IMG/VR virus record: IMGVR_UViG_2657245500_000006
Coordinates: 1-29,601 of that record
Reading direction: 5' to 3' (one strand)
Origin: a virus
Lineage: Duplodnaviria > Heunggongvirae > Uroviricota > Caudoviricetes
DNA length: 29,601 nucleotides
Position numbers: made by a program. Shown here one piece after another: positions 12,001 to 15,000 of this stretch. Position 1 is the first letter of the stretch. Each line of letters starts with the position of its first letter.

Positions 12001-15000
12001 GTGGAAAAAGAGCGAAATAAGCCGATTCCACTTCTCAGTAAAATAGATGGCAATGGTAATGTTACAATTACCTCCGCAGACGGCTCAACAACATTTACTG
12101 TTTATGATAAAGAAGTTCATGATTTCATGAAGGCTGCGGCATCAGGGAAAACTGATGATATTAAGACAAACCTCCTGACAGAACAGAATATCCGTGACCT
12201 GTACAACCGCGTTTCAGCAATCCAGCAGATGGAAACCAACGTCGGCCTGGATGAGTATGGAAATGTGGCTGTAACACCGAATGAAATAAAAGAACGCGTA
12301 TCTTTGCAGCGCTATCTGGCATGGGAGTCCGCCAACTCCACCATTGTTGCGAATGAGCTTGAAGCTCAGAAAGGCAAGCTTGATGCTCAGAAAGGCGAGC
12401 TTGAAGCGCAGAAGAAAAATCTTGGTGAACTGACCACGCGTACCGACAAGATTGATGCTGCGGCTGCTGCAACAGCTGCAAAAGTCGAATCCCGCACACT
12501 GGTTGGTGTGAGTTCTGATGGCACCCTGACCCGTGCAGAAGGTGCAAAGAACACCATTTCTGTTAACGATGGTCTGGTGGCCCTGTCTGGTCGTACTGAC
12601 CGTATTGATGCAGCAGTTGGTGCCATTGATGGCCGTGTCACCCGTAACACGCAATCCATTGAGAAAAACAGCAAGGCGATTGCAGCCAATACCCGTACGC
12701 TGCAGCAACATTCAGCACGTCTGGACAGCCAGCAGCGCCAGATTAATGAAAACCACAAGGAAATGAAACGAGCAGCAGCACAGTCTGCGGCCCTGACTGG
12801 TCTGTTCCAGCCGTACAGCGTGGGTAAATTCAACGCGTCAGCAGCGGTGGGTGGTTACAGCGATGAGCAGGCACTGGCAGTGGGTGTGGGTTACCGCTTC
12901 AACGAGCAGACCGCAGCGAAAGCAGGCGTGGCATTCAGTGATGGGGATGCCTCCTGGAACGTTGGTGTGAACTTCGAGTTTTAATTGCTGAAGGTGACAT
13001 GAAGTATGACGGCAGGCACAGGAGTTTTGCCTGCCGTTTTTTTTCATGGGGCATAAAAACAGGAAGGTGCTGCGATGAAGGTAATTCTGGCCACAAGGAA
13101 CCGCTACCTGGAATATGGACTGCAACAGTTGCTGAAGGAACACAGTGTGATACTGGCGAGGGAGTTTTTCCTGCCGGAGAACCGCCGTTATATCCCGGAC
13201 TTTGACGAATCCTGGCTGATAATCAGTGATGGCCTGCTGGGCAGGCTGATGCGCTGTATGTTCCAGGGGCGTCATTTTCTGCAACTGGATGCGGAGTTGC
13301 TCCGTGATGGCGAACAGATAAGTGATGCCATACGCAACGGCGTGTGGACGTATAACAGTGTTGCCCGCCCGCTGACGATGTCAGAGATGGTGGTGATGTT
13401 CGGTTATGTCTACCGCCAGTCGAGACCCTGTCGCCTTGCCAGTGAAATGGGTATCCACACGAAGACGGTGAATACCTTTCTGTATACGGGAATGGCGAAA
13501 AACGGGCTGTATGGTGTGAGCGTCAGACGGCTTGTTGGTGCCTGATGGCGGTCCTGCCGGATGCGCAGAATCTTCTGATAGTTCAGAAGGTGCAGATGAT
13601 GAATAAAGAGAGATGCCGGACAATCGGAAGAAAACGTTACACCACAGGCGCAATGTGCTTCATGCTGTTTGTGTGGCTTGGTGGTGTGCTGGCTCTTGTT
13701 GCTACAGCTGCGGTGGTAATGCAGTAAAAAAAGGGGAGCAACATGCTCCCCGACCAGAAGAAAGACGTTTGATAACAATTAGTGAGTTGTTACGTCTTGT
13801 CCAGAATATCATAGCAACACTCTGTTGCAGTGATACCGATCGCGATTTTAGCGAATTCCATCATAAATCCCCTGATTTTTAAGCCTGAAGCAGTCAAAGG
13901 AATTTCTATGCCCTATATCGATATCACCACGATGCGTGGGATGATGCCGCGCGTTGTGACATCCATGCTGCCCGAGCATTCCGCTGTACTGGCGGAGGAC
14001 TGCCATTTCCGGTTTGGTGTTATTACACCAGAACGTCAGATATCCGGGGTTGAGAAAACATTCACAATTAAGCCAAAAACAATTTTTCATTACCGTGACG
14101 ATTTCTGGTTTGCATGGCCGGATGTGGTGGATGTGATCCGCAGTCCGATCGCTCAGGACCCCCACGGGCGTATTTACTACACTGACGGGCGTTTTCCTAA
14201 AGTGACGGATGCGACCATTGCCACAAAAGGGGACGGGAATCACCCGACATCATCGTATCGTCTTGGGATCCCCGCGCCGACGACAGCTCCTGTCTGTACT
14301 GTCCAGCAGGGCGGTGATGTTTCTGACGATAACCCGAATGATGATGAAACCCGGTTTTATACGGAAACCTTTGTCTCAGATTATGGTGAAGAAGGTCCGC
14401 CAGGTCCGGCGTCTCTGGAGGTAACACTCCGTACTCCGGGAACTGCGGTACAACTGACGCTGGCTCCGGTGCCATTGCAGAATGCCAGTATTAAACGTCG
14501 TCGTATTTATCGTTCTGCATCAGGTGGAGGGGAGGCGGATTTTTTACTTGTGGCTGAACTGGATGCATCCGTGCTCAGTTACACGGACAAAATACCGGCG
14601 AAAAACCTTGGACCTTCGCTGGCGACATGGGATTACCTGCCGCCGCCAGAGAATATGACAGGCCTTTGCCTGATGGCTAACGGTATTGCCGCCGGGTTTG
14701 CCGGTAATGAAGTGATGTTTTCGGAAGCGTATCTGCCGTATGCATGGCCGGAAGTGAATCGTCACACGACGGCAGAAGATATTGTAGCTATCTGTCCGCT
14801 CGGAACGTCACTGGTGGTGGCGACAAAGGGTGAGCCTTATCTGTTCAGTGGTGTATCGCCTTCCACAATTTCCGGCTCCAGAATTCCTTCAATGCAGGCG
14901 TGTCTGAGCAGGCGGAGTATGGTCGCGATGGAGGGCTTTGTGCTGTATGCAGGAACAAATGGCCTGGTGTCTGTTGATGCAAACGGTAATGCCGCTCTGG

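Follow-up and report, generated by a model that had tools for sequence, protein, structure and literature searches.

What is the small gene that directly follows the adhesin gene eibA in the viral DNA record IMGVR_UViG_2657245500_000006, and on which genes might its product act? The window analyzed here is the whole 29,601-nt stretch of that record (Caudoviricetes; positions 1 to 29,601), in which eibA (11806-12984, plus strand) encodes a 392-aa trimeric autotransporter adhesin and immunoglobulin-binding protein (PF03895 YadA_anchor, E 2.4e-17). Its stop codon is followed after 90 nt by the start of the open reading frame (ORF) in question, ORF-156 (13075-13545, plus strand; 156 codons, ATG to TGA). 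An earlier sequence-only reading of this DNA took the product for an orphan LuxR-type regulator with a helix-turn-helix (HTH) in its C-terminal third, which may act on eib or on host genes. The present analysis shows that ORF-156 is a real gene under purifying selection, and that its product (156 aa, 18.1 kDa, pI 9.4) is very probably a LuxR/FixJ-type regulator of the kind represented by TosE of uropathogenic E. coli, with host genes as the better-supported half of that earlier pair of targets.

The gene was deposited along with the eib genes, as an ORF without a name. Among phage records, GenBank AF151091 (E. coli ECOR-9, prophage P-EibA) matches the DNA around eibA and ORF-156 at 98% identity; it is annotated with eibA, orf-156A and orf-60A and with stem-loops upstream of eibA and between eibA and orf-156A; the window's Eib and ORF-156 proteins are each 100% identical to EibA and ORF-156A of that record. 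The two systems share the gene, its position after eib, the terminator between them and ORF-60 as the next gene; they differ in that P-EibA continues with the autotransporter gene eaaA whereas the window continues with an L0124-like gene, as in P-EibD, and in that the window's ORF-60 is only 77% identical to ORF-60A. Similarly, ORF-156C follows eibC and ORF-156D follows eibD (AF151674 and AF151675; prophages P-EibC and P-EibD, also of ECOR-9). These three records give no function for ORF-156A, ORF-156C or ORF-156D.

Several observations establish that the frame is a gene. Both of its halves are under purifying selection (dN/dS 0.07-0.30 across eight alleles from related loci), a Shine-Dalgarno-like AGGAAGG (13061-13067) lies 8 nt upstream of the ATG, and the beginning of the protein, MKVILAT, aligns with the beginning of every relative. 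ORF-156 is not what remains of a larger disrupted gene, a finding that would have undone the earlier proposal; the reverse situation holds, in that Shiga toxin (Stx) phages carry deleted and frameshifted remnants of it. The protein belongs to PHROG 6585 (E 1e-98), a group of unknown function, and to a narrow family: 44 relatives were found among approximately 5.8 billion proteins, each of them labeled 'hypothetical' and derived from E. coli or a gut sample, and 37 clusters matched in an exhaustive profile search of 1.84 billion representatives.

The identity of the family comes from its homology to TosE. ORF-156 aligns end to end with TosE of E. coli CFT073 (32% identity, E 7e-31, residues 1-151 by BLASTP), and the family profile retrieves a 160-aa protein, P0050, over its full length (E 2e-33). 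In metagenome loci the gene for P0050 lies downstream of genes for a type I secretion ABC transporter, an HlyD adaptor and a large protein with repeats, with another small LuxR-type gene after it; the DNA of this locus matches that of E. coli CFT073, Nissle 1917 and ABU 83972 at 100% identity, and the order of genes in CFT073 (PapB-family regulator, TolC, ABC transporter, HlyD, repeat protein, two HTH proteins) is that of tosRCBDAEF. P0050 is thus TosE of the tosRCBDAEF operon. Against one genome per species the ORF-156 family profile found no relative, and TosE alone as the query matched one metagenome-assembled genome.

The likeness between the two proteins extends beyond sequence to their domain order, their similar size and a conserved Asp at the same place, and the two genes are similarly placed, tosE lying directly downstream of a non-fimbrial adhesin gene (tosA) behind a terminator-like hairpin. 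The systems differ in the adhesin, which is a type-I-secreted RTX protein in the one and a trimeric autotransporter in the other, in the replicon (a chromosomal island for tos, a prophage for ORF-156), and in the gene that comes next, which is the second LuxR-type gene tosF in the one case and a small membrane-protein gene in the other; no TosF-like gene is present in the window, where a superfamily hidden Markov model matches ORF-156 only among all ORFs of at least 40 aa. The suggestion that ORF-156 and eib form a distinct regulatory arrangement is not borne out, as the locus repeats the tosA-tosE order of uropathogenic E. coli, an order that recurs at further loci with trimeric autotransporter or RTX adhesin genes. 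The title of Engstrom et al. (2014), as cited in PMC5956150, describes TosE and TosF as LuxR-family members that suppress motility, and TosEF appear among the listed regulators of fliC (PMC10392849).

The fold of ORF-156 was examined with an AlphaFold2 model built on the family alignment (pLDDT 89, pTM 0.85). Its N-terminal domain (residues 1-95; 13075-13359, plus strand) is modeled as a degenerate receiver-like (beta-alpha)4 fold, with beta1 at residues 2-6, alpha1 at 10-19, beta2 at 25-27, beta3 at 46-51, alpha3 at 53-62, beta4 at 67-72 and alpha4 at 79-88. When the model was compared with the PDB by Foldseek, the best matches were all full-length NarL/FixJ regulators (FixJ, StyR, EvgA, RcsB, DesR and VraR at probability 0.96-1.0, and also LiaR, VpsT and DosR), and in a library of viral structures the top matches were 'response regulator' proteins; the N-terminal part is therefore a shortened receiver-like domain. 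Compared with FixJ, RcsB, EvgA, DesR, VraR and DosR, which share its two-domain fold and GerE-type HTH as the best structural match, ORF-156 is shorter by approximately 50 residues, lacks beta5-alpha5 and a partner kinase gene, retains one of the five signature receiver residues, and has sequence similarity below Pfam detection. The residue retained is Asp52, at the phospho-acceptor position at the end of beta3, which is conserved throughout the family, even in relatives at 19-30% identity; Thr7-Arg8 stand in place of the acidic pair and Asp72-Ala73 follow beta4, and the model contains neither a beta5 strand nor the conserved Lys, falling short of a complete (beta-alpha)5 receiver.

Because only the Asp is retained, and because no histidine kinase gene lies near ORF-156 in the window or in any of the related loci inspected, the protein most likely works independently of phosphorylation, and its phosphorylation is unlikely. 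No autoinducer-binding domain is matched in Pfam, nor is any autoinducer-binding LuxR protein among the structural matches listed. The earlier statement that ORF-156 has no obvious receiver or autoinducer-binding domain thus holds for the autoinducer domain, and for the receiver at the level of sequence; at the level of fold it does not, as residues 1-90 adopt the receiver-like arrangement in the model.

The C-terminal domain (residues 96-156, pI 10.3; 13360-13545, plus strand) is a GerE/LuxR-type HTH that lies below the detection limit of the standard libraries. ORF-156 has no match in Pfam-A (E up to 1) or in NCBIfam, and none of 20 family members matches the GerE model (PF00196), weak Sigma70_r4 matches being all that is returned. 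Deeper comparison gives a consistent answer. The family profile searched against PDB sequences yields four matches, all of LuxR type (VqmA three times and GerE; E 0.07-0.3), in register over residues 93-149, and when the most distant relatives are added to the profile GerE (1fse) becomes the top match (E 0.0034), followed by VqmA, VraR and other LuxR-type domains. On the Pfam GerE model itself, whose gathering score is 23.5 bits and which ORF-156 does not reach, two subgroups of the family at 26-34% identity score 25.4 and 32.9 bits, TosE 19.7 bits and TosF 50.7 bits, and these scores complete the link between ORF-156 and genuine LuxR-type domains.

The structural model agrees with the profiles: helices at residues 102-113, 118-125, 129-142 and 152-155 (pLDDT 80-94) form a four-helix bundle in which helices 2 and 3 make up the HTH, and Foldseek matches it to LuxR-type regulators and to sigma-70 region 4. 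The HTH that had been proposed for the C-terminal third is thereby confirmed, by the profile match to GerE, the four modeled helices and the relatives above the GerE cutoff, with the qualification that a plain Pfam or NCBIfam scan, which taken alone would have counted as refutation by the earlier reading's own standard, fails to find it and the deeper family-profile search succeeds. The predicted recognition helix (residues 129-142, KTVNTFLYTGMAKN; 13459-13500, plus strand) is almost invariant across the family, eib-less members included, with the pattern KTVNTFLY..KN. This near-invariance and the basic character of the domain suggest that ORF-156 may bind DNA.

The positions occupied by family members were compared in 50 viral contigs and several genomes, and fall into three groups: eib-linked, eib-less and remnants. 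An Eib-type trimeric autotransporter (TAA) gene is followed after 82-90 nt, on the same strand, by a full-length ORF-156 (68-100% identical) in 23 loci, and 16 different TAA alleles precede it at this distance. The passenger domain of Eib ranges from 331 to 506 aa across these loci, whereas the anchor, the terminator and ORF-156 are fixed, usually with ORF-60 next. In the window the G+C content is 36-39% in the eib promoter region and passenger half (11250-12150; 37% as a single figure) and 50-55% in the anchor half, ORF-156 and ORF-60 (12300-13650), with 52-54% for the anchor and ORF-156; this contrast and the variation of the passenger beside a preserved anchor, terminator and ORF-156 point to recombination within eib. 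Among complete E. coli genomes, 71 of 5426 contain the eib-ORF-156 junction. ORF-156 is co-inherited with the adhesin gene beside which the earlier reading had noted it.

Adhesin genes other than eib have the same kind of neighbor. A 160-aa relative is encoded 82 nt downstream of a TAA gene on plasmid-like contigs, and at a chromosomal locus of extraintestinal pathogenic E. coli (L090, 3888-5763; strain MS20659) a gene for a 452-aa YadA-like adhesin is followed after 61 nt by a 151-aa relative annotated as 'sigma factor-like HTH'; this class of TAA gene (73% DNA identity to the eib anchor) occurs in approximately 200 complete E. coli genomes, of which one locus was inspected. In another enterobacterium a 153-aa relative lies 48 nt downstream of a gene for a 307-aa TAA, between ldhA and ydbH, and a 189-aa relative is found downstream of genes for RTX and GA-domain proteins. 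A terminator-like hairpin separates adhesin gene and regulator gene in the eib, tos and ldhA-ydbH (L084) loci.

Intact homologues also occur where there is no adhesin gene. A 180-aa homologue is present without eib in 12 viral loci and in enteropathogenic E. coli (EPEC) E2348/69 and O55:H7, where it lies downstream of the tail-fiber genes of lambdoid prophages and upstream of type III effector genes (NleG, an IpaB/EvcA-family effector and the NleH kinase, with nleF also in the region). It marks the start of the effector region at 7001-7543 of L051 (an EPEC E2348/69 derivative), at 7001-7543 of L052 (O55:H7) and at 6001-6543 of L025, and the RefSeq/PGAP annotation of all three shows a short pseudogene fragment only. 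Stand-alone relatives with AT-rich upstream regions are found at 5001-5516 of L100 and L102 and at 5001-5495 of L091 and L094; one stand-alone relative is located approximately 450 nt upstream of kpsF, in a group 2 capsule cluster, adjoining a type VI secretion gene, and another in an island between hpa genes and a PerC-family gene. The family is thus not tied to adhesins. In 933W-like Stx phages (L037-L050), by comparison, residues 1-24 of ORF-156 have been lost through a deletion between two GAAGGATGCC repeats, and the remnant carries in addition a second internal deletion and a frameshift, with a stump of orf60 (its last codons) retained; an example lies at 5990-6330 of L044, between the tail-fiber genes and the L0124-like gene. 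A 106-bp orf156 remnant of Stx phages is present in approximately 250 complete E. coli genomes.

How ORF-156 might be expressed is suggested by the DNA between it and eib. An intrinsic terminator of eib (13010-13044, plus strand; stem CGGCAGGCA / TGCCTGCCG, 9 bp and GC-rich, with a 9-nt loop and a run of eight T) is retained with compensatory changes in diverged loci. The gap from its T-run to the ATG of ORF-156 is 30 nt, and no promoter was found between the terminator and position 13075, either by scan or by eye. Given this short gap and the lack of a promoter-like site, ORF-156 is most likely transcribed by read-through from eib or as part of an anti-terminated phage late transcript.

Taken together these features suggest the following mechanism, which is tentative as a complete chain, its chances being somewhat short of even. 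ORF-156 would be a functional, horizontally mobile member of a group of small TosE-like LuxR/FixJ-type regulators, in which a truncated four-strand receiver-like domain is fused to a basic GerE-type HTH and acts without phosphorylation. Having no promoter of its own in the eib moron, it would be produced in small amounts with any transcription of eib, through leakage at the terminator, and in addition from anti-terminated late transcription of the phage. By analogy with TosE it would act in trans on conserved host promoters, most likely turning down the flagellar genes, and cells that produce the adhesin would then cease to swim; any feedback on eib would be secondary. Action in trans on shared targets is suggested by the nearly invariant recognition helix combined with the intact copies that have no adhesin gene beside them, and the simplest reading of a helix that is conserved even in eib-less members is that its targets are conserved host sequences common to all of them. 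No local motif shared by eib-linked and eib-less loci, as a possible binding site, was found.

A number of observations weigh against this mechanism. A literature search brought up no paper on ORF-156, nor any experimental or transcript data for it. A role in motility is transferred from TosE, a homologue at 32% identity, whose mode of action PMC5956150 describes as unknown and which acts alongside TosF, whereas ORF-156 has no such partner gene in the window. The terminator of eib looks strong, so that read-through may be very low. The last helix, which serves for dimerization in GerE-type proteins, is short in the AlphaFold model. LuxR-type recognition helices such as those of NarL and GerE usually have Lys or His at the base-contact positions; by our own reading of the alignment, these positions in ORF-156 are occupied by Asn, Thr and Tyr. 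Lastly, the stand-alone homologues lie by effector and capsule genes.

The principal alternative is that ORF-156 is a dedicated local regulator of eib, controlling it by feedback through co-transcription and binding in the upstream region, where two sites come into question. One is a perfect 11-bp inverted repeat, GAAATTCCGAA-N16-TTCGGAATTTC (11665-11675 / 11692-11702), approximately 104-141 nt upstream of the eib ATG and annotated as 'stem_loop' in AF151091. The sequence-only reading had offered this repeat as a candidate operator, and its description as perfect with a 16-nt spacer is accurate; it is moreover non-random, as a repeat of this kind turned up in only 8 of 2000 shuffled versions of the intergenic region. 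It is perfect in only one type of upstream region, among close relatives, whereas other types have a partial left arm and a displaced TTCGGAATATC. Upstream type is also not inherited together with ORF-156 subtype, since L009 combines a 97%-identical ORF-156 with another upstream type. A site confined in this manner fits poorly with a recognition helix that hardly varies, and the proposal that it is the operator of ORF-156 is not supported. The other site is the palindrome TTATTTGTATACAGATAA (core TTGTATACAR; 11770-11787), which in the form TTTGTATACA(A/G)A is the best-conserved non-coding motif of eib upstream regions: among the eib-type loci L001-L023, 20 retain the region and 19 of these have TTGTATACAR ahead of the TAA gene, the exception being L020 with the degenerate ATACGTGTGCAAATAA. 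This conservation speaks for local regulation, as do the tight linkage of ORF-156 to TAA genes across very different alleles and replicons and the precedent of AutA/AutR, neighboring LuxR/GerE-type proteins that bind the adjacent upaB promoter (PMC4844996). The TTGTATACA palindrome is, however, specific to eib, being found in none of the eib-less or remnant loci, and homologues with the same recognition helix remain intact where both eib and palindrome are lacking; at 20-35 nt before the start codon it may equally well be promoter or 5' untranslated sequence. In addition, eib has known activators, reportedly IbrAB and RpoS, of which IbrAB are a different type of protein encoded elsewhere in the genome. 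We do not favor a dedicated eib regulator and consider it rather improbable.

Another possibility is that ORF-156 acts as an auxiliary or decoy partner of a host FixJ/NarL-type regulator, for example RcsB, redirecting or blocking it. RcsA, GadE, BglJ, MatA and DctR are auxiliary partners of FixJ/NarL-type regulators such as RcsB, and such small LuxR-type proteins are reported to pair with RcsB. Both of the usual dimer surfaces are reduced in ORF-156, which lacks the alpha4-beta5-alpha5 face and has a short last helix, the window offers no TosF-like partner, RcsB and EvgA are among the closest structural matches, and an N-terminal motif, L-x-T-[RK]-[DN]-x-[FY], resembles GadE and DctR, though not significantly. 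Against such pairing, hhalign gives a probability below 1% in comparisons with GadE and DctR, and the strong conservation of a basic HTH domain fits direct contact with DNA; we regard partnership as unlikely. That ORF-156 is a phage life-cycle regulator, controlling late genes or the lysis-lysogeny decision, is very improbable: it sits in the late/tail region of the prophage and would be transcribed with the late genes, but homologues occur in non-phage chromosomal islands and on plasmids, and the 933W-like Stx phages, which keep remnants only, show that the phage can dispense with the gene. Least credible of all is a decaying or chance reading frame devoid of function, an idea to which the missing Pfam and NCBIfam matches and the homologues often left unannotated by PGAP lend some color; the dN/dS values already contradict a chance frame, the structure prediction is confident, and full-length homologues extend down to 19-32% identity. 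The TosE-like regulator acting in trans on host promoters remains the reading that we prefer.

Other E. coli proteins provide parallels for such a regulator. The small phosphorylation-independent regulators GadE, DctR/YhiF, MatA/EcpR and RcsA are similar to ORF-156 in size and in having a degenerate N-terminal domain followed by a LuxR-type HTH, and MatA, which is encoded in the ecp/mat fimbrial operon, represses flhDC. GadE and DctR, with the similar N-terminal motif, were considered as relatives using their K-12 sequences and set aside on the hhalign result, the resemblance being one of motif only. The prophage regulators PsrA and PsrB of O157, considered as LuxR-type relatives, were dropped because they are AraC-type (PMC10877973), and RgdR is an unrelated DUF4222 protein. 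AutA and AutR of avian pathogenic E. coli, compared by description only, are LuxR/GerE-type proteins encoded beside an autotransporter adhesin gene as ORF-156 is; they also control capsule and acid-resistance genes, and are separate transcription units (PMC4844996).

In commensal as well as Shiga-toxin-producing E. coli, Eib adhesins bring about serum resistance, clumping and chain-like adherence, and the circuit that controls them is poorly understood. Eib expression changes strongly with growth conditions, and Eib producers grown without shaking are sessile and form chains (PMC4352079); reduced flagellar expression caused by ORF-156 would fit this behavior. If that is correct, a prophage carrying eib would impose on its host, along with the adhesin, a sessile, chain-forming or biofilm lifestyle, and the homology of ORF-156 to TosE provides a concrete candidate link from adhesin expression to motility or other host programs. 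That adhesin gene, hairpin and small LuxR-type gene recur in this order, whether on a phage, a plasmid or a chromosomal island, suggests a general scheme by which acquired surface structures are coupled to host behavior. Speculatively, and on balance doubtfully, TosE-like proteins may form a mobile 'cargo-coupled' class in E. coli, in which a phosphorylation-independent pseudo-receiver-LuxR regulator travels with horizontally gained genes for surface structures or virulence, is produced in proportion to that cargo by leakage through a terminator and switches conserved host programs, above all motility; the cargo may include trimeric autotransporter and RTX adhesins, type III effector loci and capsule genes.

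The gene itself was already known, as the deposited ORF-156A, and TosEF had made known the kind of protein, a small regulator of the LuxR family whose gene follows that of a non-fimbrial adhesin. As far as the literature searched shows, the homology between ORF-156 and TosE, the receiver-like fold, the recurring adhesin-hairpin-regulator order, the unannotated intact copies beside EPEC and O55:H7 effector genes and the remnants in Stx phages are new. A family that has been 'hypothetical', or has been missed by annotation pipelines (in EPEC E2348/69 and O55:H7 among others), thereby gains a name and a fold.

The remaining features of the locus are of lesser consequence. ORF-156 lies among tail-fiber, DUF4376, eib, ORF-60, L0124-like and tail-tip genes. 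ORF-60 (13545-13727, plus strand) overlaps the stop codon of ORF-156 (TGATG) and travels with it in eib loci; PHROG 9340 covers its residues 18-60, its conserved core consists of the last 30 residues or so with a single C-terminal transmembrane helix (RYTxGAMCFMLFVWLGG...), and its counterparts in other loci are 41-43 aa long. Its true start is probably the ATG at 13596, which would yield a small membrane protein of 43 aa.

A search of Rfam returned nothing in the window or the moron region. A perfect 16-nt direct repeat, ATACAGAATTTTCGTA, occurs at 11226-11241 and 11403-11418 in non-coding DNA, the copies being 177 nt apart and the first lying within a small palindrome, TGCAATAC..GTATTGCA. 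An inverted repeat, ACATCAGAT..ATCCGATGT (11720-11752), approximately 60-85 nt upstream of the eib ATG, is replaced at the same position in other upstream types, as aligned in L014 and L017, by TGTCAG..CTGACA; the exchange looks compensatory and thus suggests a conserved hairpin or palindromic site.

Hairpins of one family (A6-7 followed by GGGGAGC-loop-GCTCCCC) are found at 11000-11023, 11126-11154, 11296-11324 and 13725-13753, and on the minus strand they resemble intrinsic terminators (stem and T7). Those at 11296 and 13725 bracket the eib-orf156-orf60 unit, the latter (GGGGAGCATGTTGCTCCCC plus T7, minus strand) forming its right edge and also following the orf156/orf60 remnant in eib-less Stx phages; such hairpins could be insulators or recombination joints of the moron. 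Just beyond, in a region (13716-14000) that is 96-97% identical in many Stx phages, a minus-strand mini-ORF, MMEFAKIAIGITATECCYDILDKT (13778-13852), has an AGGGGA ribosome-binding motif and ends immediately before the minus-strand terminator at 13751-13733. The listed GTG start of the L0124-like gene (13830) overlaps this mini-ORF, and the ATG at 13908 (..MPYIDITT) is the more plausible start.

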